A DNA stretch of 64,000 nt from IMG/VR virus record IMGVR_UViG_3300037488_003116. One strand, written 5' to 3'. The position numbers and the translations under genes were made by a program. The DNA is from an uncultured virus (IMG/VR IMGVR_UViG_3300037488_003116). Lineage: Duplodnaviria > Heunggongvirae > Uroviricota > Caudoviricetes. Below the pieces are notes generated by a model that was given only the letters and a program-made list of their open reading frames with translations, was not told the origin of the DNA and made no database searches. Every line of letters begins with the position of its first letter. Position 1 is the stretch's first letter. This document shows, piece by piece, positions 1-51,807 of this stretch.

Positions 1-311
1 CGACCGATATCCATGCCTTTTTCTCTGCCACTGACATTGTTTCAATCCACGCACCCGTGAAGGATGCGACCCTAGATCCAGTCCATAGTTTATCGGTATA
101 TTGGTTTCAATCCACGCACCGTGAAGGTGCGACAGCATGCAAAACGTTTAATTCGAGAGGCATATAAGTTTCAATCCACGCACCCGTGAAGGTGCGACAT
201 AAAATTCGAGAGATAGCCCGTGGAGTTTTTCAATCCACGCACCCGTGAAGGTGCGACGTGATTTTCCTCTCAAAATCGTTGGGAATTTGTTTCAATCCAC
301 GCACCCGCGAT
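1..311 (-). CRISPR. Type I-C CRISPR array, running off the left edge; repeat consensus in crRNA sense GTCGCACCTTCACGGGTGCGTGGATTGAAAC
   Basis: Repeats at 39-70, 104-133, 168-198 and 227-257, a deleted copy at 289-311 and a partial copy at 1-4. Spacers are 34, 33, 34, 28 and 31 nt. The CGCACC/GGTGCG stem and ATTGAAAC 3' end are typical of I-C. Lies directly downstream of cas7. Confidence 0.97.
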
Positions 312-321
312 CCTCCGTAAA

Positions 322-345: not shown

Positions 346-1320
346 TTATTCCGTAGCTTCTTCCTCCCCTTGGGAGGCACTTTCTTTGTCCCCCGTTGAG
401 AGTACCGCTCCAAAAGCTCTGATGTCATAATACTGTCGGCAGAGAATTTTCTGAGCTAGGGCTGAAGCATCTTCTTTCGCTTCATACAGTGCTTTGACTT
501 CTGCATCTGTATCGTACGGTCGGCTGATAAGGTCGTTGAGAATCTTCCCTTCCTGGAAGAAAATTTCACGATGAGCAATGCCCTTCTGGCTCTCTATTAT
601 GAATTGCCGGATTTTTCGTTTGAGGCAGACATCAGTGACTAATCCTAAGTATGAGATAGGGTCCCGACGAGGGCGGTCATCCGCATCGGGGTCTCCGTTT
701 GGATTGCCGTTTTTAACATCAAAGAACACTATATACTCAATTCGGTTAGATATCGGCTCGAAGGTATTTGTGCCGATTGTACTAAGACAAGTACTATCAA
801 TAGTGAGCTCGGTCAACTGTACAGTCGGAGGAAGTCCCTCTCTGTCAACTTTGATTTCGTAATCCAGGAAAGACTTCGGAGATTCTTTGAATGTCGCCGA
901 AGGGGTGGCTGTAATACGGTCGAATATTTCATATGCCGGGACATTGCCGTATTTTGAATTGTGCTGGGCTTTAAAGACTTTCCGCACATACATCTCACCA
1001 CGACGAGAGGCATGATCATCTGTAAAAAGATTCATTAGGGCGCATTCGAATAGGCGAAGATCCGTGGAATCAAATCCCGATTTTTCTGCATCAGAAGGTG
1101 ATACAAAGACTCTAAATTGATACAGCGCATAACCGATCCGATGTTTGGTGCCCATAGTCTGAGCTTTGTCACTGTCTTTTTCATTAGTGACCATGCTACG
1201 GGTAATAGACATTGAATCAATAACGATCGGATGAAGGGATTCTGCCATTGTTAGTTGGACAGGACCACGGACCCGACCGGCAGTTTTACGGAAAGCTTTC
1301 TTGGCAGTTTTTTGAGCCAT
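346..1320 (-). CDS. cas7c: Type I-C Cas7 (Csd2), circularly permuted
   Basis: Contains Csd2 motifs GRVRGPVQLT, SITR, TMGTKH, RGEM, NGNPNGDPD, VTDVCLKRKIR and DIRAFGAV, with the two halves in swapped order. Confidence 0.95.
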   Translation of the reverse strand: MAQKTAKKAFRKTAGRVRGPVQLTMAESLHPIVIDSMSITRSMVTNEKDSDKAQTMGTKHRIGYALYQFRVFVSPSDAEKSGFDSTDLRLFECALMNLFTDDHASRRGEMYVRKVFKAQHNSKYGNVPAYEIFDRITATPSATFKESPKSFLDYEIKVDREGLPPTVQLTELTIDSTCLSTIGTNTFEPISNRIEYIVFFDVKNGNPNGDPDADDRPRRDPISYLGLVTDVCLKRKIRQFIIESQKGIAHREIFFQEGKILNDLISRPYDTDAEVKALYEAKEDASALAQKILCRQYYDIRAFGAVLSTGDKESASQGEEEATE

Positions 1321-1362: not shown

Positions 1363-1731
1363 TCAGTTTGCGGACTTTTTGTATCGTTCTTGAGTCTGAT
1401 GATAGAGACCTAACACATATTCCGCTTGTTGCTCCATTGACAACATTAGCGGTACTTGATCCATTTTGCAGACAATTTGAGACAACTTTTTACTAAAATA
1501 CACATACAGGCCACGATTAATTCTTCTCAACTTCGCCAAATGAGCCTGTACTTTATCGTCGAGATCTTTGAGCATCATTCCAGGTGTCGTACCTAATGAG
1601 GCACGATAGCGATCATTGAAAGATTTATTAGGGCCTCCATGACCTATTGACGCTTCCTGGATCTCATTGGCTACTACCAGAAAACGTCCCAGTAGATAAC
1701 CGATACCTGTGGCTTCTTCGTCCAATCCCAT
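1363..1731 (-). CDS. cas11: Cas11c small subunit from an internal in-frame start in cas8c
   Basis: AAGGAG Shine-Dalgarno 7 nt before the in-frame ATG of MGLDEEATGIGYLLGR; 122 aa. Internal Cas11 translation is established for type I-C. Confidence 0.75.
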   Translation of the reverse strand: MGLDEEATGIGYLLGRFLVVANEIQEASIGHGGPNKSFNDRYRASLGTTPGMMLKDLDDKVQAHLAKLRRINRGLYVYFSKKLSQIVCKMDQVPLMLSMEQQAEYVLGLYHQTQERYKKSAN

Positions 1732-3060
1732 ATCGAACTCCTTTCTTCCTTCTTTTCGGTATTTACGGTTAAGATATCCTTTGACAAGAGCTATGCGACT
1801 ACGACGCATACCTTTTGGTTTGAGACATATTTCTATTGAAGTATGGACTGCGTGATATGGGTATTGTTCCCCTTCGAGGACTGATTGTAAGAGCGCCTGA
1901 TAAATAGACTTGTGAGGAATTTCATTACTGCCGTTACCAATGCATGCCCAGGCCAGACTTTTTAAGGATATTTGGTAGGGGTCAATCGCGATATCCTTAA
2001 CATGCTGATGAATCTTTTTGACAATATCTTCTATAGTGTGCTCGAAAAAATGTCGCATATAGATCCGGCCATTATTTCCGGACAGCACTGCCAGGCAGAA
2101 ACGGTCATCAGCCGGGCCCTCCTCTGTAGGTAGATCGGGCATTATCCCATTGCGGATGGCCTCTATTGCATTCTTGAGAATGGCCTCAGTTTCTTCCTCA
2201 TTTTTATTGAGGATATAGTTCACTATTCGACAAATGAGCCCATTCTTTTTTCTGGAAGTCCATAATACTACTGTGTCTTCTCCAAGGACTGAACGATGGT
2301 TCGTATCAGGCCCTGTGAGGAAATAATTGAGTACCGTTCGATAACCAAACTCAGCCTCACAGCTTATGGGGGCAATATCAGCATCATAGGAGACATGCGA
2401 AGGCCTGTTGAAGCTGACAAAGGACCCACCTGTAGGGGCTGTTCCCTGGACGCCTTTTATTTTTCCATGGCATTTTTTTAGCCCCCCAACCTTTCCGGTT
2501 ATCGTACAAAAGCCAGTTATGTCAGGACTTTTATTAATACCTTCCCAGTATTTCACCAGTCTGGGTATCTCATGCAGATATTTACCCCCTACCCGAAGGA
2601 GAATGAAACCATCCCTGTATTTGTTATCACTCACTGCCTTATCTAAAGCCTCTTTAATAATTGGATCGGCACAGTCCCTCCAACTGGTTAGAAAGACAGT
2701 CAGAGCAAGTAACTCGGGGACATGGGTTTTGTCGTAAATGTCCTGGTGTTGCAGGATGAATTGATCCAGATTCTTAGACCCATTTTTATGCACATTATAG
2801 ACTATTTCTTTGCCCTGTATGGCACAACCCCAAACATATTTTAAATTATCATGAAAGTAGCAGGCTTTTACACCACTAGTCCTGACACCCATATCTGGTA
2901 ACCGGGCTGGCTTATTAGCCACTTGAAAAGAAATAAACTCACCAGCTAAATTAATATCCAAACAGTAGGGTGCTTTTTGATCGGCATAACCATACGAGGG
3001 GAAGTTTATGTCCTTGTCATTTTTGTGCACCTGGAAATAGTCATAGAGTTGTTTGATCAT
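1363..3060 (-). CDS. cas8c: Type I-C large subunit Cas8c (Csd1)
   Basis: 565 aa; motifs RTSGVKA..DNLKYV, CTITG, H.KIKGV, FVSFN, LSGNNGRI, GYLLGR and YVLGLYHQ; lies between cas5c and cas7c. Confidence 0.95.
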   Translation of the reverse strand: MIKQLYDYFQVHKNDKDINFPSYGYADQKAPYCLDINLAGEFISFQVANKPARLPDMGVRTSGVKACYFHDNLKYVWGCAIQGKEIVYNVHKNGSKNLDQFILQHQDIYDKTHVPELLALTVFLTSWRDCADPIIKEALDKAVSDNKYRDGFILLRVGGKYLHEIPRLVKYWEGINKSPDITGFCTITGKVGGLKKCHGKIKGVQGTAPTGGSFVSFNRPSHVSYDADIAPISCEAEFGYRTVLNYFLTGPDTNHRSVLGEDTVVLWTSRKKNGLICRIVNYILNKNEEETEAILKNAIEAIRNGIMPDLPTEEGPADDRFCLAVLSGNNGRIYMRHFFEHTIEDIVKKIHQHVKDIAIDPYQISLKSLAWACIGNGSNEIPHKSIYQALLQSVLEGEQYPYHAVHTSIEICLKPKGMRRSRIALVKGYLNRKYRKEGRKEFDMGLDEEATGIGYLLGRFLVVANEIQEASIGHGGPNKSFNDRYRASLGTTPGMMLKDLDDKVQAHLAKLRRINRGLYVYFSKKLSQIVCKMDQVPLMLSMEQQAEYVLGLYHQTQERYKKSAN

Positions 3061-3689
3061 CTTTTCACCTTTGGGTCATTGGGGGGCGGTACAGACATAT
3101 AGCCATCGACAATCTCGGCTTTAAAGAAAGCTGGAGTATAGGTCCCGTAATCTATACTATGAAGTACATACCCTAGCTCCTTTTTACCTTGTAGAGCTGA
3201 TTGTGGTATCTCGTTTTCACGTATGGGCTGAAATAAGTCTACCGAGAACTCTCGACACCCAAAGTAGGGGTGCCTGAAACATTGACCCCTGCTAGCCCTG
3301 CGAAGAAAAATAGAAAGGTGCTTACCGGGGTTATCCGTTCCAGAAACAACTTCGAAATGTGCTTCAATGACATAATCCACATTAGTCAGGATCGTGGCAT
3401 TACGCTGGTCGCGCATTTTCTCACAATCGAAGGGCTTCTGAGACTTATTTAGTACGTTACGTTGTGAGATCTTGTTTTTTATACCGTTTCGCAGAAGGGA
3501 GATTGTTTTGATGGGGTTGAGTACATAAATGCCATCAACTACCCATTTCATTTCTGGTTTGCGATAGATGCACTCAAGAATGGCCTTTGCAGCAGTAGGT
3601 GTCATTACATCATAAGTGACAGATTCTGCCTTGAGGTCGGGCCTGGTGAAACAGGCCCATCGTCCTGACACACGTAATAAAACGGGCAT
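3057..3689 (-). CDS. cas5c: Type I-C Cas5 (Cas5d), crRNA-processing subunit
   Basis: Motifs WACFTRPDLKAESVTYDVMTPTAA, VLNPIK, VDYVIEAHF and GQCF..PYFGCREF. Confidence 0.96.
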   Translation of the reverse strand: MPVLLRVSGRWACFTRPDLKAESVTYDVMTPTAAKAILECIYRKPEMKWVVDGIYVLNPIKTISLLRNGIKNKISQRNVLNKSQKPFDCEKMRDQRNATILTNVDYVIEAHFEVVSGTDNPGKHLSIFLRRASRGQCFRHPYFGCREFSVDLFQPIRENEIPQSALQGKKELGYVLHSIDYGTYTPAFFKAEIVDGYMSVPPPNDPKVKR

Positions 3690-6943: not shown

Positions 6944-7855
6944 TTAGACTGTTTGAAGGACTTTCTTGGCCTGGTACTTCTCGGATTTGTAGGTAGCCCA
7001 CTGAGCCCTGTGCTCCCGAATGAACTGGTCATAGGCTTCCTTATCCTGGACCTGGATCTCATTCCTGGCCACCTTGTTATGCAGACCAACACAGTAACCC
7101 GTGACCTGAAACACACTGATCTCTGACGACAGCTCTTTCTTCCTGAATGCGACACAGAGGTCAGAACTGATCTGTCCATTGCTGGGCAGGAACAGCTTTT
7201 TCAGGATCTTGGCCTTCTCATCTGCTCTCAGGTCTCGTATCTTCCGGGGCCTGTGTCCGTTCTTCGGCTTCCGGACAGCAACCGGCAGACATGCATCCCG
7301 GCGCTTGCTGACTCTGATAAAGGTCTCTTTGATCTCATCGCATTTGTGCTGAATGAAGGAGAAAGAACAATCGAGTTTTTCACAAACCTCTTCAATCTTG
7401 AGACCCTTCTGGCGATAGTCAAGAATCCTTCTATCCGTGGGAGAGAGTCTCCGTTTCACTTCCTCATAGATGCCCTGATAATCTATCTTGTTCTCAAGCT
7501 CCATCTCATTCGCCATATCATCGGGGATAGCTTCCATATCATCCTCAGAGGAGGAGGCATTCAGCTCCTGCACGTTTATCTGAGGGTAACGGGATTTCCG
7601 TTCTTGTTCTTTGTCGACAGCATGCCGGGCTACCTGCTTGGCAGTGTTGGTAAACCAGGTATGTATCTGCGTTCGAGAACTGTCATAGGCGTTCAAGAAA
7701 TTATGTCTTTCCAATCTCACAAGCATGTCCTGTTTGAGATCGCCAATCTCTATGACATGGCGATACTTCCAGGTAACGGCGTTTAAAATTCTTTCAATCT
7801 CAGGTGCATTCAGTTGATAAAATTCCCAAAATCCCTGACAATAGATGAGACTCAT
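6944..7855 (-). CDS. Sigma-70/ECF-like sigma factor with an extra C-terminal domain
   Basis: Region-2-like DLKQDMLVRL...YDSSR..IHTWF and region-4-like LSPTDRRILDYRQKGLKIEEVCEKL helix-turn-helix, plus a ~110-aa extension. Confidence 0.7.
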   Translation of the reverse strand: MSLIYCQGFWEFYQLNAPEIERILNAVTWKYRHVIEIGDLKQDMLVRLERHNFLNAYDSSRTQIHTWFTNTAKQVARHAVDKEQERKSRYPQINVQELNASSSEDDMEAIPDDMANEMELENKIDYQGIYEEVKRRLSPTDRRILDYRQKGLKIEEVCEKLDCSFSFIQHKCDEIKETFIRVSKRRDACLPVAVRKPKNGHRPRKIRDLRADEKAKILKKLFLPSNGQISSDLCVAFRKKELSSEISVFQVTGYCVGLHNKVARNEIQVQDKEAYDQFIREHRAQWATYKSEKYQAKKVLQTV

Positions 7856-8623: not shown

Positions 8624-8861
8624 CTCCTAAATTAATTTGTGCACTAAGTATTTGGCAAGGCATTTGTGGTTTTTGACTGGCTGACTTGCCGGGGGCTATT
8701 GTGCCACCCCCCGCAAATGGTGCAGAAGTAGGGTAATATCTTGTTATCGCTATTCTCACCTATACCCTGGTTGGAATAACTTGCGAATCGCTGTGCCTTT
8801 TCTTGTGATTGAAACCGCTTCTTTTTTTCACAAACTATATTGCCCATTTTCCTCCCTCCCA

Positions 8862-28241: not shown

Positions 28242-31180
28242 ATATAAGTCACTCCTTCAAGTTAAAAAGAGGGGAGGAACCCACTCCATCCCTCCCCCCA
28301 TCCCCAACTCACCCCACCCGCTTGCAACTCACCATCTTCTTGTCCGGCGTCAAAGTCACAGAATAACTGGCCACAGAACCCTTCTTCTTGGCAACCTTGA
28401 TCGCATCCCGTATCCTCTGCTGATGCAAAGCCTCCAGATCAAAATGCTGACCCACCGCCAACACCCCCAACGTCTCCTTGATCTGAGCACGTACACCCGC
28501 ATGTTCCCCACGCAACGACACCACCGGCGCATCCGAAATCGGCAACACATTACTCATAACACACTCTCCTTTGAAAAGTTATTTGCTCCACAGTGTTTGA
28601 ACTGACTCGGACAAACCTCCCTCGCAGGACATCCGTCACAAGTCATATCGTCGCTTTTGACCGCCTCCAAATTACATTTCCACGGTTCATTACCATCCGT
28701 CGCTACGGGAATGTACTGGGAAGCTAAAACACAAAAATCTTGTAAGGCCTGAGTCCGCCTCTCCTCTTGCCCCTTCTCAGTCCGTGCGTCACTCGTATCA
28801 ACAAGTGCCCTGTACTGCTCGTTTCTCTTCTCAAAAAGTGCCCTGTACTCTTCTTGCTCCTTCTCAGTCCGTGCATCCCTCGCATCAACTAATGCCCTGT
28901 ACTCTTCTTCGGTTAATAAATACTGCATTCTCCTCCTCCCTCTTACTCAGATTATCACCCTCAATCGCTCGACGCTGAACCCTCCTCAACCCCCTCATAA
29001 AAGCAGAAGCAGGCTGATTCCCCACATCCGAATATATCAAATCAAGCTTCACCCTATTGACGATGGCATCTATCTTATTCTGAACCTTCTTTTTCATTCT
29101 TAACCACCTTGCTCGCTGTATATGTCACCTCTATCCGCGTCTCAACCTGAATTTCCCGATTACATTCAGGACAGCGCTTTATCTGCGTATCACCATCATA
29201 AGGCTCCTCCTGCCGGACTACTTCTAAACCCCGACTACAGTGAGGACATACCAAGTCAGGGTCTGAAGCATCACTACCATGCAAGAAATAGAAAGACATC
29301 CCACCCCCTTGTATTATACAACCCCATCACTCCCAGGAATCCTACATTCTCCACAACGACTAAGAAAACCATGACCTCTACGACGACCCCTGACATAACT
29401 CCCAGACGACCGAACCACACATACCCTCTTATTCTCAGGATTCAGTCCCAGGTTACCAGGCAACCACTCATCAAACTCCCTCTCAAAACATAACATCATC
29501 TCGTAACAATGCCCCTCCCGTGAACAAAACTCCCGCCACTTATCCTGTATCCAAAAGGTAAACCCCAACATACACCCACCAGGATACTCCCCCCTATCAT
29601 GCTCCATCTGACTCCCCTCATCCCGACCCCGTGACCGAGCATACAAGGTGTACCGGGGATTCCATCCCGTCTTATCTACCGCTTCCATATACTCCCCCCC
29701 CCTCTATCCCTCATAGCCAGGATTGTCATATCGAAAAACCTCTGTAACCCGCTCAGTAATCTCCTCAACATCAACCCGAAGAACACTCCTATGATTGTGC
29801 TCCCTATACAACGTAAGAGCTTCCTCCCTCTCATCCGCTCGCACCACCGTAACCTTGTGACCACCACCAGCAGGAAAATGCTCTATGATGATAAAGACTT
29901 TCATCCCACACCCACTCGCAAAGCCATCTCCAATAACACTCCCAACCTCTCCCGCAAACTCTTCAGATTCAAAGCCTCCTCTATCCCCATATCCTTACCT
30001 CGATCCCGCCAGACATGAGCCCAGTACTCAGGATCAGATAACGTAGCATGTACCTCAGAAACCCGCACCATCCCTCCCCCAACATCCCGACCATCCGCTA
30101 AATCATGCTCCACAGCCCACACCATCCGACCTATGAAAAACATCGACACCGCATCCACCCGACCCATACTCAACTCCTCAAACCGAACCCCGTCCTCGGG
30201 CGTAAGCTCATCCTCGCTCTTAATCATCAAACCTATAATCTCAGGCATCAAACCAAAGTCGTCCTCGCTCTTAATCTCAGCCAGCATACTCCCAACCACA
30301 CACCTCTCTGCCACTACCTTAACTTCCTTGTCCCAATACTCAGAAATTTTACTCATACTTCCTCCCTCTCCCCAATCCCATACCACATCATATCAAACCT
30401 CACAGTCATATAAGTGTCCAAGAAAATATGCTGGAAATCCCCAGCCGAATATCCATCCTTGTAAAACCGCTCAAACTCATCCAACGTCGCCAACTCAAAC
30501 CGCATCCGGGAAGTAAGCTCAGGCTGAACTGCATGTATCTTCGCCCTCAACTCCTCAACAGTCTTACAAGCCCCTCCCAAACCATTCAAACTAAGCGCCA
30601 CATCCACAGACTGTACCAACCCCGATACCATTACCAAAAACTTCCAAAATTCCTTCCTCTCCACCTCCGGCAAATCCAACAGGTACTCCCCCAATGCTAC
30701 CCTATATTCCCCCGAAGACTCCGGAATCATTAACTTAATACTCACCTTTAACCCCCTTATCCACCACCACAAACGTAGGAGCACTAACCTCAACCCTACC
30801 ACAGTTTCTAAAAACGTAAAATCCCATCACCCCCTGCTCAGTCATATAATAACGCCCCTTAACCGCCACATATACCCCCGTCACCTTACCCCTGCCTGAC
30901 GGCGAAGGATCTCTCCCCTCACTAAACCTCGTCACATCAAAAGCCCTATCCCCAAATATCGCAATCCTCCTCCTACCCCTGACCTCCACCCGATCTGACC
31001 ACTTACCTCGTTGCTCACGAGCAAACTCTATAAACTTATTTAACATTTTTCCCCCTTTATTATACGCCATTCCAGTACCCATGTACCAAAATAAAAAACA
31101 TGGCATGTCCGTGGGTGACTCTCAAGACTAACGATATCAAGTACTTAGCTACACCATTTCCGTTTTAAGCCATATACCCG

Positions 31181-31203
31181 TAACTATTTCCGCGAAATAG
31201 TTA
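31181..31203. promoter_or_regulatory. Palindromic site TAACTATTT-N5-AAATAGTTA, copy 1
   Basis: Perfect 9-bp arms; intergenic. Confidence 0.6.
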
Positions 31204-33840: not shown

Positions 33841-33890
33841 TAACTATTTTCACGAAATAGTTACGGTAACTATTTTGATGAAAAAGTTAC
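33841..33890. promoter_or_regulatory. Tandem palindromic sites, copies 2 and 3, in a divergent intergenic region
   Basis: TAACTATTT-TCACG-AAATAGTTA at 33841-33863 and GTAACTATTT-TGATG-AAAAAGTTAC at 33866-33890. Confidence 0.65.
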
Positions 33891-39195: not shown

Positions 39196-39201
39196 ATTAT
39201 A
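39196..39201 (-). promoter_or_regulatory. Putative -10 box (TATAAT) upstream of 38543-39166
   Basis: Minus strand CAGTATAATATCC in intergenic DNA; a similar GCGTATAAT lies near 59212, before the DUF1257 gene. Confidence 0.45.
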
Positions 39202-44000: not shown

Positions 44001-45416
44001 TCATTCTTCCTCCCTCTTAAATTTGATCTGAGCTGTAGTGCATTCAGACGGATCTACGTCATCCCGGATCTCTTTGAAGCTGGGCTGATATAGATGCCCA
44101 TGCTGTCCATTGACGTAGAGGTATTTGATCTCGGCGATTGACCCAATCGGGATGGGCATCTTGCTGGCGGCAACCGTGCAGTAGCCCCTGAATTCCCAGG
44201 TGCCCTGCTGGTTCAGGAGTTCCAGACCGATCGAGTTTTTACCTGGTCGTCCGGCACAAACTCGTGCAGAGAGTTCTGCATAGAACTTGTGCTTGAGCAT
44301 ATCCCCACCGGTTGAAGGTCGTCCGGCAGAGACCCTTGCTGTGAGCTTCTTGAAAACAACGCCTTCTCGTTTCTCCCTTTTGAACTGCTCATACATGAAT
44401 CGTTTATCTGTCCCAACATAGAGGGGGACTAATATAATCCCTGATTGGGAAGAAGCGAACAGCCTACGGAGTTCGATGTATCTATTGTTGTAATCATATC
44501 CTCGGAGGTCAGTTATAAACTCCTCGTGGATGTCAAAAACGTGAAAGTTATCCCCTATCTGCTCTCCATCTAAGAGCAGGTGAGTGTTTCGTAGAGACCA
44601 ATCTTCAAGGACTGGGATGACGCTATGAATGAAGGAAGGCGACGCGGTAACTAAGATTCCCTTCTTGTTCGTGACCCATAGACCCGGTTCAAAGACTCCT
44701 TCCCCTATCGACAATGCCTTCCGCTTCCATTCGAGCATCTTATGGGTGCCGTCTTTCTTCTCTTGAAGTCCCCAGTCCGGGTCATCGAGCAGACGCTCCG
44801 CCGTCTCCTCGTCGATCTCGTTAAGGAGCTGGGGGTAGTTACCCGTCTGGATTTTCTCACCTGGCGACATGGCCTGGGTCTCGGGGACTGGCGTGCTGGT
44901 TATAGGTGTAACTGGTTTACAAGGTGTCACAGGTGTTGCGTCTGGATTGTCCCAGAAGATCTTCCTGCGGTGGACATGGCGAGCGGGCTCTGTGTTAGGG
45001 GGAGTTACAGGTGCCGGAGGAGTCTCAGTCCGGAGAGCTGTGGCCATGCCTGAGACCCCCGGAGCAGGCCGAGTATGGAGGGCTTCAGGGGCGACCCCGT
45101 TGTCCCATTGGATGGCCTCGTAGCCTTTAGCCAGCTTACTGTTCAAGAGGGATTCAAAAACTTTTAGGGCCTTCTCGTAGGAGACTCCCCCATCAGCAGT
45201 TTTTGTCCAGGGCACCAGGGAGGCACCTCTCCGTCCAGACTGTGCCTCTACCCGGTAGGTGAGCTGGGCGGATTCTTGCCCGCCCGCGATTTCTTCTGTG
45301 AATTCTTCCTCGTGCTCATTCAACTGGATGTCATAGACCTTATCACTGCTCCCTTCGTTGCACCAAAGGGAAACGCTTCTAAGAGTACGCATGGAAACGC
45401 TTCTAAGAGTACGCAT
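44001..45416 (-). CDS. WGR-domain ATP-dependent DNA ligase
   Basis: N-terminal EGSSDKVY...GRRG...K..KGY, Pro-rich linker, QEKKDG, LLDGE, FDI, EGVVFK, LKHKF and an OB-fold EIKYL...LYQP....R.D. Confidence 0.85.
   Translation of the reverse strand: MRTLRSVSMRTLRSVSLWCNEGSSDKVYDIQLNEHEEEFTEEIAGGQESAQLTYRVEAQSGRRGASLVPWTKTADGGVSYEKALKVFESLLNSKLAKGYEAIQWDNGVAPEALHTRPAPGVSGMATALRTETPPAPVTPPNTEPARHVHRRKIFWDNPDATPVTPCKPVTPITSTPVPETQAMSPGEKIQTGNYPQLLNEIDEETAERLLDDPDWGLQEKKDGTHKMLEWKRKALSIGEGVFEPGLWVTNKKGILVTASPSFIHSVIPVLEDWSLRNTHLLLDGEQIGDNFHVFDIHEEFITDLRGYDYNNRYIELRRLFASSQSGIILVPLYVGTDKRFMYEQFKREKREGVVFKKLTARVSAGRPSTGGDMLKHKFYAELSARVCAGRPGKNSIGLELLNQQGTWEFRGYCTVAASKMPIPIGSIAEIKYLYVNGQHGHLYQPSFKEIRDDVDPSECTTAQIKFKREEE
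45369..45416. repeat. Perfect 24-nt tandem duplication of the ligase gene start
   Basis: GGAAACGCTTCTAAGAGTACGCAT twice, giving MRTLRSVS twice. Confidence 0.9.
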
Positions 45417-45709
45417 CTCGTGTCTCCCTTCTTAGGGTGAGGGTTAATCAGGCCAGAGCCCGTGCTCGGACAGGATGACGGTTACTCGTTCGAGGGAGTC
45501 GGAATTGAGTGGCGTGTTAGGGTCAAGTATACTGTCGTTGAGGGGGGTATATCCTGTCCCCCCATTGAGCCAGACTTCGGCGATGTCCAGAGTAAACTGC
45601 TCTAGATCTCCTCTGCTGGCGGTTTGAACTTTTTGCCGGAGGTCTCCAAAAGTTTTCATTCTTAACTTTTCCTTTCTGAACTTTCACAAATTATATTGAA
45701 GGGGTTAAT

Positions 45710-45740
45710 GTCGCACCTTTATGGGTGCGTGGATTGAAAC
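45710..45740 (+). CRISPR. Solitary type I-C repeat 1
   Basis: GTCGCACCTTTATGGGTGCGTGGATTGAAAC; two differences from the array consensus, both in the loop. Confidence 0.9.
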
Positions 45741-46520
45741 CTTATTGCAAGTGCATCAAAAGGGTTTACAGGTCTTGAGGGCCTCACTAAGAAGACCCTC
45801 CTATTAAATGGCTTCTTCTTGGGGGCTTCCGATACGGTGGGTTTGTATGCCTTCCCGTGCTCATAGGCCGCCTGCTGTTGAACATCGGTACTCTGGAATT
45901 GCTCTCCTCGTACTCCTTTACGGAAGGCGTCAAGTAAATGTGTTCTCGATAAATATTCCCATTCTACTTCGCAGACGGGGCATGTCCAGCCGAAGTCACG
46001 CTTATGCGTTTTACATCTCCTCATTCAGATCTCCTTTACTGGAAGGCAATTTTCTTTTCTTTACAGAAGGCATAGAGCTTCTCTTCAAACAGAAAGCTCA
46101 TTGTTGAGTAGCTCCCGTCTTTTCCTGAATAGGTTTTGGTCTCGGTATCAAAGACTCCGGTGAAGGGAATAGCCAGCACTGTTCTGACTCCTGAGTTCAG
46201 GAGAGGGGCATACCCGGCAGAACAGATAACGACTGTTGCTATTTTCCTTCCCAGAAGTTCCTCGCTGTCTTTCTTATACCTATCAAACTTTGCAAATCCC
46301 GGATGCTGATCGAACACGAGGACGAATGCCCCAATCCCATTCCAGTTCCTTATGACAAGGTGATTATTCTGATCTATGGGGATATTAATGCCAAAGGCCT
46401 TCCCAATGCGATAGACATCATCACCTTTATAGGTTTTGTGCCCGTTCTTCCTCAACCACCGGAGAAACTTGCGACAAATTCTCCGGTAGTGCTCATCGTC
46501 TGATTCCCAAAAGAATTTCA

Positions 46521-47060
46521 TCAGTTCTCCTTCCATATGATTCTGCGACCGGGGGACACCAGTAGTAAGGGCCCGCTCGCCTCCATCAGCAGTTTAGTCT
46601 GGACTGGCGTCGGGCCAGACTCGAAACCCAAAGGCTCGCTGGCATCAATCCACCCGTGATCGTCCGGATCTTCCCCCTGATATTCTACCACACCCGATAA
46701 GGTATATCCTCTCGGAGTTAAAACATTATCGATGATGTACTTGAGCCACTTGCGGTACTCATAGAACTTCTCGCCCCCGTCCCATTCTATACCGTTGTGG
46801 TCTTCAGTCGGTGCCCATAGACACCACAGACTTGGCTGGGTACGGGGTGGTCGGTCATAATCGAGAACAGTAACATCTCCGGGCTCTTCTCTGCCGTCTA
46901 CAAAGAACTCCCCCTCGATTCCGTACTTACTGGTAAGAAGGGGGCTGAATTTGCGAGCCACACGCCGGGTCTCGTTGAGCTTGACAAGAAAGGAATATGT
47001 CTCTTCGTCAAGGGGCTTGTTTAACCAGAAGCGCCCGGTGAATTCTGTCGTATACCCCAA
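46521..47060 (-). CDS. Hypothetical phage protein (MGYTTEF-type) with C-terminal RRIIW
   Basis: GGAGG before a TTG at 47060; QPSLWCLW...IEWDGGEKFY...WLKY. Confidence 0.65.
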   Translation of the reverse strand: MGYTTEFTGRFWLNKPLDEETYSFLVKLNETRRVARKFSPLLTSKYGIEGEFFVDGREEPGDVTVLDYDRPPRTQPSLWCLWAPTEDHNGIEWDGGEKFYEYRKWLKYIIDNVLTPRGYTLSGVVEYQGEDPDDHGWIDASEPLGFESGPTPVQTKLLMEASGPLLLVSPGRRIIWKEN

Positions 47061-47312
47061 AGTAAACCTCCTTCTATATGTTATTCCACAGTATGAACTC
47101 TGATCTTGGGCTGTGCACAGAAAGAGCCGTAGCACTGTAGCATGCGTCAATCATCCTTCTCGCACTGTCAAGTATTGACTTATCGGAAGGTTCTCTCTCT
47201 GTCTCAGTCCTGACCTTTACATTTACTGATATGCCGGTTGACCGGGGATAGCCACGGACACCCAGTGGCTTCCCCAGACTGACCTGTGCCCGGCAGCACC
47301 ATATGCACGCCA

Positions 47313-47636
47313 TTATTCTTTCCAGATTATCTTGCGGGGTTTGACCGTCTCTCTGGCGGGTTCCGCTTCCTTGCCCCTCACGGGAATCTGCTCCCGGATA
47401 GCCGTTGACCGGTGCTCTTGCGTTCTGTCAACCCCGATCCTGGTGCAAGTCCGATCGGCGTTGCCAGACTCAACTGCACGGGTATGTTTACACTCCCGTT
47501 CTTTGTCCGCCTTCTTCATGCACCAGCCGGGACATCCACAGCTCGTGTGCCCGTCAGCATACTGGAGGGTCTCATACTCCTTGTCCGAGGATGAGGATTT
47601 GAAATACCACGACTTTACTATGTCGTTGCTACTCAT
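47313..47636 (-). CDS. SWIM zinc-finger protein with C-terminal RKIIW
   Basis: SSSSDKEY...SCGCPGW...CKH. Confidence 0.75.
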   Translation of the reverse strand: MSSNDIVKSWYFKSSSSDKEYETLQYADGHTSCGCPGWCMKKADKERECKHTRAVESGNADRTCTRIGVDRTQEHRSTAIREQIPVRGKEAEPARETVKPRKIIWKE

Positions 47637-48470
47637 ACTATTCCCCTTTCTTCCTCACTATTCGTTTTACTTTTCCGGTGACGATCCCGTCTGCCCGGAC
47701 TGCTACTGAATTAGTGGCCGGTAGGATCTCGGTTACATAACCGATCGTGCCGTCTCTGAGCACTACTTGATCCCCAATTTCTGCTTTCATTCATACCTCC
47801 TTAACGGAACTTTTCAGGGTGTAACATTCTCAGGGGATGTCCTTGGGGAACATCCTTGATTCGTATGCCGTAAATCTTCCGGTTCTCTTTCTCAAGGTCT
47901 CGTCCATTGAACAGGAAGTTATTGGTCTCAGTCCACGTTTCTACAGAGCGGTTATAGGGCTGGCCTTCGACGAACGGGAAGCGTACTCCAGACTGGTTAT
48001 CGACGGACTTGATGACCCCGCCTTCGACGACAATCGTGATCGTCCTCCGATGACGGGATGTAAGAACTATTGTCTGGTTCATAGTGGGGCAAATGAGGCC
48101 GGTTTAGGATTTTTCTTCTTCTCACTGAAAAGCTTGTCCAAGTTTTTCTGCTTCTTGATCTCAGCTCGGACATCAGACGCCGTAAGTCGGTTGGCATATC
48201 GCATATGATAAGCGTCCCCGACATCCAGATGAATCAGATGGACGGGCTTCAGGGAGTACACCAGGTAACGGGCATACCCATCGCCGACCGGGAACCGGAT
48301 CTCCTCTCCGGCCTCGGGACAGGTCTGGGAGTCCTTGAGTGCCTGCTTCAGGCGGGCAATGACGGCTTCACAGTCTTTCTCGTACTGGTCATACTTGAAA
48401 CCGCTTTTCTTGACATAGGTTTCCATCTTTGGAAGGTCAAACCCTTTAGGGGGCCTGAATATTTGAGCCA

Positions 48471-49472
48471 TTAGTCCTCCTTGTTAAGGGCGTTACATAT
48501 TCTTGTGCAACAGACTGGTTCCTTTTTATCTTCTCTGAGGAAGCCCTGAGACGCAGTATGAATATGACATCTTTCTATTTTGTCGTAGACATGCCATGAT
48601 CTACCACCGTCTTCATAATCAAAATGTTGAACTTCATATCTCGTCTCTGTTTTAGGTGGTTCCTCGTCGGGTTCTACATCAGGGAACTCTTTCCCTTCAA
48701 TAAGGGATACACTGAAGTCATACCCCTCTTCTCCACAAGATTTAACCCGAATACCGGCTCGTTCCATAGCCTCCTCAAACAGCTTTCTGGTACTGTATAT
48801 GAAGGTCAGATTGTACAGAACACGCTGATACTCACGCTCGATGCCTTCACTCTTATTGTGTAGGATAATCTCCCCTTTGCCCTTCAGATACTCCTTGAAT
48901 CTTCCATGGAGCTTTCGTTCAAGGATCCTTTTACGAATGGCCTCAAACTTCTTATGGGTCTCCTCATAAGTTATGTGCTTTTTGCTCTCTTTGAGGTGCT
49001 CTAATAGCTCATCTGCATAGGACTTGAGCATCAGGGGGTCTTCAGCATATCGCATATTGAAAAAGGCGTGCTCTGCAAAAGACATCTTCATGCCGAGGTC
49101 TGAGTGGGGATCAAGAGTAGCGATCCTCTCACCTAACAACATGCCATGGCCAAGCACGGCACCGAGTAAGGTCCGGAGAGGCTTGCGCCCTTGGCCCTTA
49201 TCTTCATAGGCAACGTGGGGCAGGCTTACCCGTGTGACGAACGGGGGAGAGCAGACTCCCCCATCGCCGTGGCCCTTGAAGGCCTTGAGCAGGGCCTTCT
49301 CGTCAAGTGTATCCATGTCCTGATAGTCCTGATAGTTCTTTATATATTTCCGGTACTCCTTGGGTTCAGCTTTGATGTTCCAGCGCTTCTTAATGAATCG
49401 GAGGATTGCGTCCATTTCATTCGAGAAGTTAAAATTCATGTAGTTATTCAGATCGCATAGTTTATAGCTCAT
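48471..49472 (-). CDS. Hypothetical protein
   Basis: 333-aa ORF coupled to neighbours. Confidence 0.65.
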   Translation of the reverse strand: MSYKLCDLNNYMNFNFSNEMDAILRFIKKRWNIKAEPKEYRKYIKNYQDYQDMDTLDEKALLKAFKGHGDGGVCSPPFVTRVSLPHVAYEDKGQGRKPLRTLLGAVLGHGMLLGERIATLDPHSDLGMKMSFAEHAFFNMRYAEDPLMLKSYADELLEHLKESKKHITYEETHKKFEAIRKRILERKLHGRFKEYLKGKGEIILHNKSEGIEREYQRVLYNLTFIYSTRKLFEEAMERAGIRVKSCGEEGYDFSVSLIEGKEFPDVEPDEEPPKTETRYEVQHFDYEDGGRSWHVYDKIERCHIHTASQGFLREDKKEPVCCTRICNALNKED

Positions 49473-50733
49473 CCTTCAATCGCTCCAGACGGGAATGCCC
49501 CACTCCGCCACTGCTTGGCCACGAGTGCGTTCCTGGTCGGGTCGAAGAATGACGGGGTGTAGTGGTAGGTCCTGTTTCCAATCGTGTATGACCTGTTGAC
49601 AATGAACTTGTTGTCCGGAGTCCTCAGAATGAACAGGTACAAGAGCTCAGCCATCAGGGCGTCGTGCTCAGCGTACAAGGTCTTAGCGGCCGCAATCTGC
49701 GTGCGTAGTGCTTCCAGACGATCGAACTTGGCTTGGATGGCCTGTTCCATCTGGGAGACTGAAGGGGACAAGGAGACCGGGGGCGTGCGTCGTGTTCTTG
49801 GCATAAAAGTAACCTCCTGAAAATAGGATTAGGATTGAGTGCAGTGTTAGTGGACACAGGGCGGGCGTAGCGTAGTAAGGCTTGCCCTACTCGATGAGAG
49901 TGATAGAGCTCCGACTCTCATGGGCATCTTGTTCGGTCGGGTCTCCATCAAGGCGAACAATGACTGTGTTCTGCATGAAGGCTTGATAAGCCCTCTGCTC
50001 AGGATCGCCCTCTGTGTCAAAGTCCTCAAGCTCGTCATGGATGACGGTGGCCTTACCCTTGTCGGTAAGAACCCGATCCCCAGTCTCATAGACTGGGGTT
50101 GGAATGTTAATGATCTTCATCTGTTCTTGTCGCTATTGACGATGATGGACATCTCTCGTTCCAAGGCCCGGGCATAGGAGTCAGGACTATCACAGGTGCC
50201 TCGGATTCTTCGGATGGCCCTCTCGGTCGCATTGAAGCGACCCTTGATGGGCCATTTGCCCGAGTCATCCTGCTGTCTGAACAGCCGGTTGATGACTCGG
50301 GTCTGGCCCAGAGGTGTATCGCTCTTCTTCCATGCAATACTCAGGATCTGCTCTGCTGACTTTGTCTTCATCGCCCATCCGCCCATAGTTCATAGGCAGC
50401 TTCCTTCGCTGCCTCATCGCATGCTTCGAGATAGTCAAAGATCTTAATCGTCATCTCGTTGTCATCAATCAGGCGAGAGAGATCGATTGCCGTTATGGGT
50501 TGCTTAGACAGGACTACCCGTTCAATCTCTATCTGGGCATCCTCGTCCGGCTCCAGGGGCGGGCCGAACTTGCCGTCTCGGGCTCCCTTACAGGCCGGAG
50601 AGTAGTGGTAATGAACATCAACCTCATACTCCTTGTCCGTGTACCGAGACAGGATTTTTGTCGTAAATATATTCGTGAATGAGGCCATTTATTTCCTCCT
50701 AGTCTAACCATAGACTATATTGAAAGGGTTAAT

Positions 50734-50763
50734 GTCGCATCTTTACGGTGCGTGGATTGAAAC
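50734..50763 (+). CRISPR. Solitary type I-C repeat 2
   Basis: GTCGCATCTTTACGGTGCGTGGATTGAAAC; stem kept with one G-U pair; intergenic. Confidence 0.9.
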
Positions 50764-51807
50764 CTTATAGGTTATTCTTGTACGAAGTCAAAATAGAATC
50801 TCGGGTTATTCTGAAAGCATAGGGAACCCCTGACTAGGTCTGACTTCCTTGTGACTACGACGTAAGGGGCACGGAAGCCACTCACTACGAAGTCCTGACC
50901 AAGTTCCTGGGTGTCCCATACCTTCCCGTGTTTCTGCTCCAGCTCCTCACGGGCCGTGGGGCTCTGGTTGATTTCCTTCACAAGAGACCGACGAACGGAC
51001 TCGGTTTCATCAATGGGCATGGCGTGCTCCTTGTCGGGGGTTAAAAACGTTACTCTCTACTCGAAGAGAGACTGAACCTCTTCTGCGGAAGTCTTCGTCT
51101 GCTCCTTGAATCGCCCACATGGAATTGTAGATGTAGAGATCCTTATTCGGATCTCCTGAGGGCTTTCTCGTTCGCAGATACTGTTGCATACTGTCTACAA
51201 GGTGCCCGTCTTTAGTCATCCTCTTCTTGATCAGGTCATAGCCTCGCTTATTCAGAATGACCTTGAGGTGATGGAGAAGTCGGGACTCACCTTTCGCATA
51301 CAAAATCCCACTGAAGCGGGGGTCGCCCTTCTCTCTGATTACTTGGCAGTTGCCCGGACTCATTTCAACTTTCATTGCTACCTCCAGTTACATTATTTCA
51401 GAAGCTCAACGATACTCTCAGCTTCGCTAAGCATTTCCTCATGGCCACCTGAGTGACCCTTATCATAAGCGATACCGATAAGCGTTGAAGCTTTCGGGTG
51501 ACCTTCAATTCCGAGGTGCTTGATAACATCGTCGTTCCATTTCTCGGGGAAGTCCTTATAGAAACCGGCTCGAAGACGATCCCGAATATTCGAAGACTTG
51601 TACATCTCCTGACGCTTTTTCTCTGCACACTCGGGACAAAGAACGCTTCGAAGCTCTTTGACTTCGTTCTCGATGCAATTCGAATGGCAGGTACGATTGA
51701 TTTCCCACTTCTGATCCTCAGCCTCTTTGAGATTTTTTACAACCGTAATACTTTTGCCACATTTGCAACTGATTGTCCAGCTCTCGTTTTTCTTAATCAT
51801 ATTCTCC

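Follow-up and report, generated by a model that had tools for sequence, protein, structure and literature searches.

Solitary CRISPR repeats carried by phages are known as RNA anti-CRISPRs. In the sections of Camara-Wilpert et al. 2023 (PMC10651486) drawn on here, RacrIC1 inhibits type I-C systems and the inhibition by RacrIF1 is dose dependent. The same sections describe viral solitary repeat units (SRUs) as being without cas-gene association and as having a promoter-like, AT-rich box just upstream of the lone repeat, and they name as Racr criteria a promoter no more than 250 bp upstream, small-RNA expression and inhibition via aberrant Cas subcomplexes (PMC10651486). Single I-C repeats are also cut by Cas5c and loaded as 48-50-nt RNAs, according to the cited part of a preprint (bioRxiv 10.1101/2024.12.27.630466). 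Such type I-C crlRNAs repress the promoters of defence genes and have viral mimics, termed Cracrs, in the cited parts of two preprints (bioRxiv 10.1101/2024.12.27.630466, 10.1101/2024.10.29.618823). A further point of reference is provided by the PeSLs of T4-like phages, presented in the cited excerpt as small motifs that combine terminator and promoter and mediate indels in hyperplastic regions (PMC4122927).

We analyzed a 64,000-nt (64-kb) stretch of DNA from an uncultured virus of the Caudoviricetes (IMG/VR record IMGVR_UViG_3300037488_003116), hereafter called the window, which contains two solitary type I-C repeats, SRU1 and SRU2. Both fall into the known class of viral SRUs. The novelty lies in their location on a small insertion-polymorphic cassette, antisense to all genes, on an element with a matching I-C Cascade and no cas3 in 64 kb. 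Neither the origin and spread of SRUs nor SRUs on elements with a matching Cascade of their own are described in the cited parts of the Racr and crlRNA literature (PMC10651486).

As in the Racrs of the cited sections (PMC10651486), we observe a lone intergenic type I-C repeat with intact hairpin and handle and an AT-rich box upstream, carried by a mobile element. Unlike the Racrs, our repeat shares its element with a matching I-C Cascade and array. It also occurs twice, each time within a 65-72-nt cassette whose insertion is polymorphic among close relatives, and its anti-CRISPR activity is putative. RacrIC1 is co-transcribed with acrIC5 in the cited account (PMC10651486), whereas the SRUs studied here are antisense to all their neighbours, with no recognisable acr gene nearby. 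The crlRNAs share with these loci a repeat with a hairpin and a conserved 3' handle, as well as the layout of repeat, about 37 nt and 3' hairpin (bioRxiv 10.1101/2024.12.27.630466, cited part). In contrast, crlRNA and Cracr units adjoin cas5c or mimic host CreA/CreR in the parts cited (bioRxiv 10.1101/2024.12.27.630466, 10.1101/2024.10.29.618823), while our SRUs are distant from the cas genes. Guides of crlRNAs match a promoter beside a TTC/TTA PAM (bioRxiv 10.1101/2024.12.27.630466, cited part), whereas the 'guide' next to the cassette is ancestral coding sequence for which no TTC-flanked target above shuffled guides was found in the window.

Resemblance to the PeSLs, as the excerpts present them (PMC4122927; PMC2839356), lies in the short stem-loop with a promoter-like motif, of which several copies are found at indel breakpoints among the small genes of a hyperplastic region. 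The stem-loop differs from PeSLs in being a complete CRISPR repeat with its handle, with a -10-like box only, no -35 and no U-tract, and the phage group is unrelated. The element also resembles the huge phages in the cited sections of Al-Shayeb et al. 2020 (PMC7162821) in carrying a type I-C-like Cascade and a short array without cas1, cas2 or cas4; the huge-phage I-C variant has a helicase in place of Cas3, and dispersed solitary repeats are not mentioned in those sections (PMC7162821).

The element and its type I-C locus

The window represents a phage-like element in which nearly all credible ORFs are encoded on the minus strand. Matches to PHROG profiles included a sigma-factor-like protein, an FtsK-like ATPase, an ATP-dependent ligase and phosphoesterases, with no virion genes detected by PHROG in the 64-kb window. 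The sequence-only reading had placed a Cas3-less Cascade on this genome, and the Pfam searches agreed with it:

1-313, minus strand: CRISPR array, the first repeat truncated at its 5' end, with 4 full repeats that carry single-base indels; spacers of 28-34 nt
346-1320, minus strand: cas7 (Pfam, E=3e-79)
1363-3060, minus strand: cas8c/csd1 (Pfam, E=5e-107)
3057-3689, minus strand: cas5c (Pfam, E=4e-31)

The array is located 30 nt past the cas operon on the same strand, and a sixth array repeat begins at the window edge. Overlapping sets of ORFs (17 and 51 with Pfam, 61 with PHROGs) were scanned and yielded no cas3, cas4, cas1 or cas2; for cas3 this result covers the 64-kb window, beyond which the source contig of 77,877 nt continues for about 14 kb.

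A search with the stem-and-handle pattern identified 43 genome loci, two of which (in a Gammaproteobacteria MAG and a Cellvibrionaceae MAG) carry the exact array repeat, indicating that potential I-C hosts exist. The SRU-like loop TTTAC was also found in a Pigmentiphaga MAG. Although the Cellvibrionaceae MAG has the identical repeat, its Cas8c shares only 33% identity, and thus no host was assigned. When the fetched parts of host and viral arrays were compared with the window, 1 of 4,544 hits was located outside the repeats, a 16-nt chance match. An Rfam search of the whole window yielded no family at the gathering threshold, and between 45500 and 51000 there was none even at E<=1.

Two solitary repeats in a common block

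The repeats, their conserved flanks and the neighbouring genes are located as follows:

45692-45709, plus strand: conserved 18-nt 5' flank of SRU1, TATATTGAAGGGGTTAAT
45710-45740, plus strand: SRU1, solitary type I-C repeat of 31 nt, 29/31 identical to the array repeat
45712-45729, plus strand: predicted hairpin of SRU1
45730-45740, plus strand: 11-nt handle of SRU1, TGGATTGAAAC
50716-50733, plus strand: conserved 18-nt 5' flank of SRU2, TATATTGAAAGGGTTAAT
50734-50763, plus strand: SRU2, solitary type I-C repeat of 30 nt, GTCGCATCTTTACGGTGCGTGGATTGAAAC
45444-45659, minus strand: 71-aa gene with its ATG at 45659, just downstream of the SRU1 cassette in gene sense
45719-46024, minus strand: 101-aa gene upstream of SRU1
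50368-50688, minus strand: 106-aa gene just downstream of the SRU2 cassette
50772-51020, minus strand: 82-aa gene, its stop 8 nt before SRU2

A single I-C repeat at 45710-45740, in crRNA sense on the plus strand and antisense to the surrounding genes, had been noticed from the letters alone, and we confirm it; all credible genes around both SRUs are on the minus strand. The SRUs are thereby opposite to every neighbouring gene as well as to the cas5c-cas8c-cas7 operon and the array. Both lie between minus-strand genes, SRU1 being intergenic by origin, with the upstream ORF now entering it by 22 nt.

SRU1 (GTCGCACCTTTATGGGTGCGTGGATTGAAAC) differs from the array repeat (GTCGCACCTTCACGGGTGCGTGGATTGAAAC) at repeat positions 11 and 13. 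The predicted fold bears out the earlier claim that both changes are located in the 4-nt loop of the hairpin, with the stem (positions 3-9 with 14-20) and the 11-nt 3' handle unchanged. SRU2 displays a 1-nt deletion, which is also present in the array repeat at 104-133, and a C7 to T change that forms a G:U pair in the plus-sense RNA only, where the predicted stem is retained. Its predicted folding energy is -7.2 kcal/mol in plus sense versus -4.4 in minus sense, in which an A-C mismatch weakens the stem. The predicted stems comprise 7 bp and 6 bp, and the 11-nt handle is identical in both. Wherever the SRUs differ from the array repeat, the change is thus in the loop or compatible with plus-sense pairing, an argument for plus-sense function in which the G:U pair amounts to one substitution. 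Loop position 11 is T in both SRUs and C in the array repeat; both therefore derive from a single SRU ancestor and not independently from the array as it is now.

The 16-nt 3' part of the repeat occurs seven times in the window, five times in the array (minus strand, 39-304) and twice as a solitary repeat (plus strand), as compared to 0.46 occurrences expected by chance; none of 100 shuffles reached seven. A profile search of the 64-kb window revealed no SRU copy beyond these two, and the other repeat-like matches were confined to the array (39-307). No other repeat is present within 100 bp of either SRU, in agreement with the SRU definition used for Racr discovery, and each SRU locus contains one repeat, as compared to the two or more around a spacer that define an array or mini-array. 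The SRUs depart from the Racr-discovery set, chosen for having no cas association, in sharing their contig with a matching cas5c-cas8c-cas7 operon and array 42-50 kb away.

The repeats are embedded in a common block of 54 nt (45692-45745 and 50716-50768), beyond which the flanks are unrelated. The recurrence of a unit of about 54 bp at 50716-50768 had been pointed out and holds, with 50/54 positions identical and one 1-nt gap, but the second repeat has 30 nt and is offset by 1 nt. The 19-nt flank pattern TATATTGAARGGGTTAATG was found exactly twice in the window (45692 and 50716), as compared to 0.04 occurrences expected.

Empty and filled alleles in relatives

We compared the Logan contigs of four DNA runs with the window at an identity of at least 85%; each observation stems from single contigs, which can be chimeric. 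For SRU1, an empty allele was identified in the nearest relative, the metagenome contig L051, and this is the only empty allele inspected base by base. The ligase of this contig is 76% identical to the window ligase (44001-45416) beside SRU1, and the contig starts just upstream of its homologue of the 71-aa gene. The empty site reads AAACCCTTTTGATGCACTCGCAACAAGG directly followed by AGTTGAGAATG, whereas the filled site on the minus strand of the window reads AAACCCTTTTGATGCACTTGCAATAAGG, 72 nt, AGTTAAGAATG, and the 72-nt gap is flanked by sequence of about 90% identity. A contig of run X2 skips exactly 45668-45739, the same 72 nt that are missing in L051.

The SRU2 cassette is missing in contigs of runs X1, X2 and X3. 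Those of X1 and X3 lack 50683-51017 (335 nt, comprising SRU2 and the 82-aa gene) and have CTTGCC in between, while in an X2 contig 50681 is joined to 51179 via 36 letters that end in gene sense in CAAGATTAACCTATAAGGAGTAAGCCATGGGTAAGC, so that the SRU2 site is empty and has AAGGAG as an ordinary ribosome-binding site. In a further X2 contig, a 51-nt piece matching 45690-45740 is located between 50122 and 50378, a different site with the orientation unchanged, and a contig of X1 matches the SRU2 cassette from 50708 on, with another gene start in front of it. The cassette is thus present in at least four contexts among close relatives, and the repeat is antisense to the genes in every one. A lack of conservation in related phages, which the sequence-only reading would have taken as counting against it, is observed at these two sites, yet the cassette recurs elsewhere in relatives.

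These alignments show, at the level of sequence, that the SRU1 and SRU2 loci are copies of one mobile, insertion-polymorphic cassette of 65-72 nt with a type I-C repeat. The cassette is very probably an insertion and not an acquired guide unit. Judging by the same alignments, this 65-72-nt insertion, polymorphic among close relatives, is the main feature of the locus, and it is the one that the sequence-only reading missed. The two copies are delimited as follows:

45668-45739, plus strand: SRU1 cassette, a 72-nt insertion (72-column alignment gap against L051; joint 45667/45740 in the X2 contig)
50698-50762, plus strand: SRU2 cassette, about 65 nt (joints 50682/51018 and 50681/51179, with the intervening letters)

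Read in gene sense (minus strand), the SRU1 cassette consists of the reverse-complemented repeat, ATTAACCCCTTCAATATAAT and TTGTGAAAGTTCAGAAAGGAAA, the last being a replacement ribosome-binding site; of its 72 nt, the conserved flank accounts for 18 nt and a tail that closes with AAAGGAAA for 22 nt, next to the repeat in reverse complement. In both copies the repeat ends within 1 nt of the right boundary. On the gene side the limit of the SRU2 cassette is uncertain, as the relative has a different ribosome-binding site and different first codons. CTTAT had been counted as part of the unit, and it does follow both repeats, but it is the complement of the target ATAAGG and therefore lies outside the mobile cassette. 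Two IMG/VR matches to the handle-plus-CTTAT pattern were discarded as ordinary array spacers, suggesting that CTTAT is not a general SRU feature.

Both cassette sites are flanked by genes of one orientation. At each of the two sites for which an empty allele has been sequenced, the cassette interrupts the downstream gene's ribosome-binding site (AAGG/AG) and supplies a substitute; in relatives, the AAGGAG of the 71-aa gene abuts the upstream gene. Insertion at SRU1 replaced the last codons of the 101-aa gene, which ends in ALAIRFQSTHP in the window versus ALATRS in L051 and has its stop codon now inside the SRU1 repeat loop. The C-terminus of this protein is conserved (NPFDALAIR in the window, NPFDALATR in L051). 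Contigs of relatives also display gene-sized skips in the region (46024/46521, 46026/47054, 47721/48304, 47867/49469 and 50682/51018). The empty and filled alleles thus show a repeat-bearing cassette of about 70 nt moving between ribosome-binding sites in a hypervariable gene region.

A small transposable element of the MITE type, which would have terminal inverted repeats and a target-site duplication, was rejected: reading the alignment by eye, we observed that nothing is duplicated where the SRU1 cassette joins its flanks and that its two ends do not form inverted repeats. The part before the repeat was compared with the five array spacers (5 spacers x 4 flanks x 2 strands, 40 comparisons), and the lowest shuffle fraction was 0.038; since none fell below 0.01, an apparent resemblance of spacer S4 to the SRU2 flank was rejected. 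IMG/VR contained no close relative by ligase query, by Cas7 query or by a flank-plus-repeat pattern, and the 18-nt flank alone gave two IMG/VR matches there, both to AT-rich coding sequence by chance. A blastn search with 45400-46100 gave no match in the phage records.

The sequence after the repeats

The sequence-only reading had proposed a dispersed single-guide unit, with a spacer followed by a hairpin (GGTCTT and AAGACC) after SRU1. The stretch concerned is:

45741-45800, plus strand: supposed spacer and hairpin, antisense of the conserved 3' coding end of the gene at 45719-46024

The letters of the hairpin are present 30 nt past SRU1, GGTCTT at 45770-45775 and AAGACC at 45792-45797, but they belong to coding sequence kept in repeat-less relatives and the fold is no better than that of shuffled sequences. 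The z-scores were +0.23 after SRU1, where a small hairpin is predicted at about 45769-45783, and +0.58 after SRU2, where no clear hairpin was observed. The 35-40 nt just past SRU1, in which the proposed hairpin is included, are about 90% identical in relatives without the repeat. Since this stretch is conserved in repeat-less relatives and encodes a protein C-terminus, it is no imported spacer.

Partial guide targets with a TTC PAM, which had been suggested as a further line of evidence, did not emerge. Scanning TTC only, we found no target in the window above shuffled guides for the SRU pseudo-spacers or the five array spacers; the best seed scores were 11/15 (SRU1) and 10/15 (SRU2), whereas shuffled guides reached 12 and 11. 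Spacers and pseudo-spacers had no match among 50,697 phage records, elsewhere in the window or in 108 loci, except for the expected L051 homology. Both known empty alleles have CTC at the PAM position, not TTC or TTA. With a 'guide' that is ancestral coding sequence and for which these searches found no target, a programmed single guide is unlikely.

Promoter signals on the two strands

On the plus strand, a -10-like TATATT is located 12 nt before the repeat in both copies, at the edge of the conserved block and wholly within it. The plus-strand start predicted from this box is at about 45703-45705 for SRU1. On the minus strand, TATAAT (SRU1) and TATAGT (SRU2) precede the downstream ATGs by 30 and 25 nt, respectively. 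Minus-strand TATAAT occurs 13 times, and six of these sites are at most 45 nt upstream of one of 111 minus-strand starts, although such zones make up about 8% of the window; comparable sites are found at 39196 (29 nt) and 11987 (34 nt). A consensus scan identified no sigma-70 promoter on either strand of either cassette, and no -35 element. No terminator was found within about 190 nt downstream of the cassette in plus sense, and the minus-sense hairpin, having no U-tract, is not an intrinsic terminator.

Interpretation of the cassette

We interpret the cassette, tentatively and with a probability of roughly 0.35, as a compact promoter-plus-repeat minigene that may produce a putative Racr-type decoy or blank crRNA. 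By analogy, the Racr-like decoy remains the reading with the best precedent, given the Racrs themselves, the processing of single I-C repeats by Cas5c and the lone I-C repeats of other viral contigs. The conserved core of TATATT, 12 nt and repeat would constitute a minimal plus-strand minigene, with transcription presumably starting about 6 nt before the repeat. Cas5c of the host or of the element itself would cut after G45729 (SRU1) or G50752 (SRU2), and the I-C Cas proteins would load the 11-nt handle together with whatever RNA comes next. As that RNA would be the element's own antisense and lack a target, its role would be that of a decoy or blank crRNA and not of a programmed guide. The decoy RNA may titrate the I-C Cas proteins in a dose-dependent manner, by which extra cassette copies would be rewarded.

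The decoy is favoured by the solitary state of the SRUs, the preserved stem and handle, the plus-sense compatibility of their differences and the location of TATATT inside the conserved block. Arguing against it are the missing sigma-70 consensus match and -35, the lack of a terminator within about 190 nt, and the ribosome-binding site at the cassette end, which together with the TATAAT/TATAGT spacing on the minus strand is equally compatible with a role in gene sense. A repeat in sense orientation, as in three other viral loci (L001, L003 and L053), would moreover need no promoter of its own. Finally, a decoy would titrate the element's own complex too, since the element has its own Cascade and an array with the same repeat. 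The cassette provides a clonable unit for asking whether a minimal promoter plus repeat suffices for anti-CRISPR activity, and it raises the questions of whether a phage-borne, Cas3-less Cascade is helped or hindered by it and whether CRISPR repeats serve as phage recombination modules.

A gene-sense (minus-strand) regulatory cassette similar to the PeSLs is a serious rival, though on balance doubtful. The stem-loop, -10 box, short leader and ribosome-binding site would then drive or insulate the downstream gene, and the module copies would be recombination points that shuffle small genes, with the CRISPR repeat merely the source of the stem-loop. Consistent with this, order and orientation relative to the downstream ATG are constant in 4/4 contexts, the cassette carries its own ribosome-binding site, and the distance from TATAAT/TATAGT to the ATG is like that of other minus-strand TATAAT sites in the window. 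The hyperplastic region with its gene-sized skips fits as well, as does the huge-phage locus L053, in which an I-C-like repeat in the other orientation directly precedes TGTATAAT and a gene. The minus-sense hairpin, however, has no U-tract and is weakened in SRU2 by the A-C mismatch, a -35 element is missing, and in the X1 variant the ATG is only 15 nt past the -10 box. Nor does a gene-sense role explain why an intact 11-nt I-C handle is retained beside the stem in both copies. If the cassette acts only in gene sense, it would represent a CRISPR repeat co-opted as a regulatory stem-loop.

Rather unlikely, yet also a serious rival, is a neutral or selfish insertion, in which an array fragment the size of a spacer (36-42 nt) plus a repeat (30-31 nt) would have been copied into ribosome-binding sites by illegitimate recombination without any RNA function, tolerated because the ribosome-binding site is restored. 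The presence/absence polymorphism among close relatives agrees with such an origin, and 65-72 nt is about the length of one I-C repeat plus one spacer, with the right boundary at the repeat end within 1 nt. The few differences between the copies (4/54) give no sign of purifying selection, and no target, terminator or predicted promoter was found. On the other hand, the cassette is present in at least four independent contexts in a single orientation, its pre-repeat part is unlike any of the five array spacers, and both copies have an intact stem and handle. Mobility is also not accounted for by terminal inverted repeats or target duplications, of which there are none.

An anti-repeat RNA is improbable. 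A polycistronic mRNA would in that case carry the 31-nt complement of the I-C repeat, pair with the pre-crRNA of the host or of the element, and block Cas5c or trigger RNase III. Gene-sense transcription across the cassettes needs no special promoter, as all genes are on one strand, and the complementarity to the array repeat is 29/31 for SRU1 and lower for SRU2; array and SRUs being on opposite strands, the transcripts of one strand contain both repeat and anti-repeat. The changes in SRU2 nevertheless reduce its complementarity to the array repeat, and the element's own crRNA maturation would be blocked too. We know of no precedent for such an RNA in type I systems.

More doubtful still is a single-guide unit of the crlRNA type, in which the adjacent sequence would guide the Cas3-less Cascade to a partly matching target and repress it. 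Single I-C repeats yield functional 48-50-nt crlRNAs with the 3' end in a downstream hairpin loop, as the cited preprint section describes (bioRxiv 10.1101/2024.12.27.630466), and with the hairpin at about 45769-45783 the RNA would be about 47 nt long, its only perfect or near-perfect targets being the empty alleles of related genomes. This is countered by the ancestral coding nature of the guide, by the absence of a TTC-flanked target above shuffles in the window and of any match in the phage records, and by CTC at the PAM position in both empty alleles. Furthermore, the hairpin is no better than shuffles and missing for SRU2, and neither SRU is located beside the cas operon.

The least probable reading, to which we give very little credence, is a 'guide maker', with Cas5c and Cascade making a guide from the adjacent sequence that matches only empty-allele genomes. 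If true, the Cas3-less Cascade, or one that borrows a host Cas3, would silence or cut co-infecting relatives at the empty site, and these relatives, once repaired from the genome that has the cassette, would acquire it. Such a natural exclusion or homing drive based on CRISPR would account for the repeat-exact right boundary and the polymorphic spread, but CTC is not the canonical TTC.

Solitary type I-C repeats elsewhere

Beyond this element, a solitary repeat in a Pelotomaculum genome without a Cas8c match (L008) is followed by the same 8 nt, CTTATTGC, a match that may be fortuitous, and is located at the junction of a truncated gene copy. Among the viral contigs with I-C repeats, 5 of 12 loci contained a single repeat, and the loci L001 and L003 add two more. 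In one of the five, L102, the lone I-C repeat is likewise divergent from the start of a neighbouring gene.

Solitary repeats in other genomes

Two single repeats outside the window are:
L008/L050:4990-5020, solitary type I-C repeat in a Pelotomaculum MAG
L053:15246-15277, plus strand, single I-C-like repeat, GTTGCATTTTTCATAAATGCGTGGATTGAAAC, whose stem is AT-rich, in a huge-phage contig of 441,848 nt

In the Pelotomaculum MAG, an 803-aa gene has a truncated copy, and the repeat is located at the junction of that copy. The repeat is followed by CTTATTGC, which is identical to the 8 nt following SRU1, the solitary I-C repeat at 45710-45740 in the window. A search for Cas8c in this MAG genome yielded no match. 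The repeat in the huge-phage contig is in sense orientation, flanked by two plus-strand genes and positioned immediately 5' of TGTATAAT. The same contig encodes a ligase that is 42% identical to the ligase located beside SRU1 (44001-45416, minus strand).

Possible trace of a repeat and flank within the window

A degenerate handle-like sequence, GTGATTGAAAC, was observed at 8806-8816 within the plus-strand segment 8786-8845. The sequence TTTCACAAACTATATTG starts 10 nt past it and matches the sequence immediately upstream of the conserved SRU1 flank at 16 of 17 positions. The handle precedes the flank, which is the opposite order to that in the SRU cassette, where the flank precedes the repeat. 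The segment falls within a 72-aa minus-strand ORF, and the profile search returned it with E-values of 18-53 only. It may represent a remnant of an older repeat-spacer-repeat arrangement.

Features of the CRISPR array

In the minus-strand array, only the 3' half of the first repeat (289-313), GGTGCGTGGATTGAAAC, is retained, behind GGAGGATCGC, so that the first crRNA would carry a handle while lacking a hairpin upstream of it for Cas5c. Spacers S2 and S3 (134-226, minus strand) have the 10-mer CTCTCGAATT in common, and their targets may therefore be related. The search for protospacers gave no hits for any of the array spacers.

Variation around the ligase gene

At its 5' end (45369-45416), the ligase gene contains an exact 24-nt tandem duplication, encoding MRTLRSVS twice, of which one copy is missing in a contig of run X1 (24 nt left out at 45369). 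The region at 46024-50700 is hyperplastic. Whole small genes are skipped in the contigs of relatives (46024 to 46521, 46026 to 47054, 47721 to 48304 and 47867 to 49469), and other stretches are replaced (49887-49946 and 50056-50135).

Palindromes and a sigma-factor-like protein

Potential regulatory features were as follows:
31181-31203, 33841-33863 and 33867-33889, a 23-nt palindrome present three times, as TAACTATTTCCGCGAAATAGTTA and variants
6944-7855, minus strand, 303-aa protein with a weak match to a sigma-factor PHROG (2.8e-06) and an HTH

The palindromes are located upstream of minus-strand genes starting at 31106 and 33795, and look like operator sites of a dimeric regulator. A sigma factor encoded by the element itself could explain promoters with a -10 box alone.
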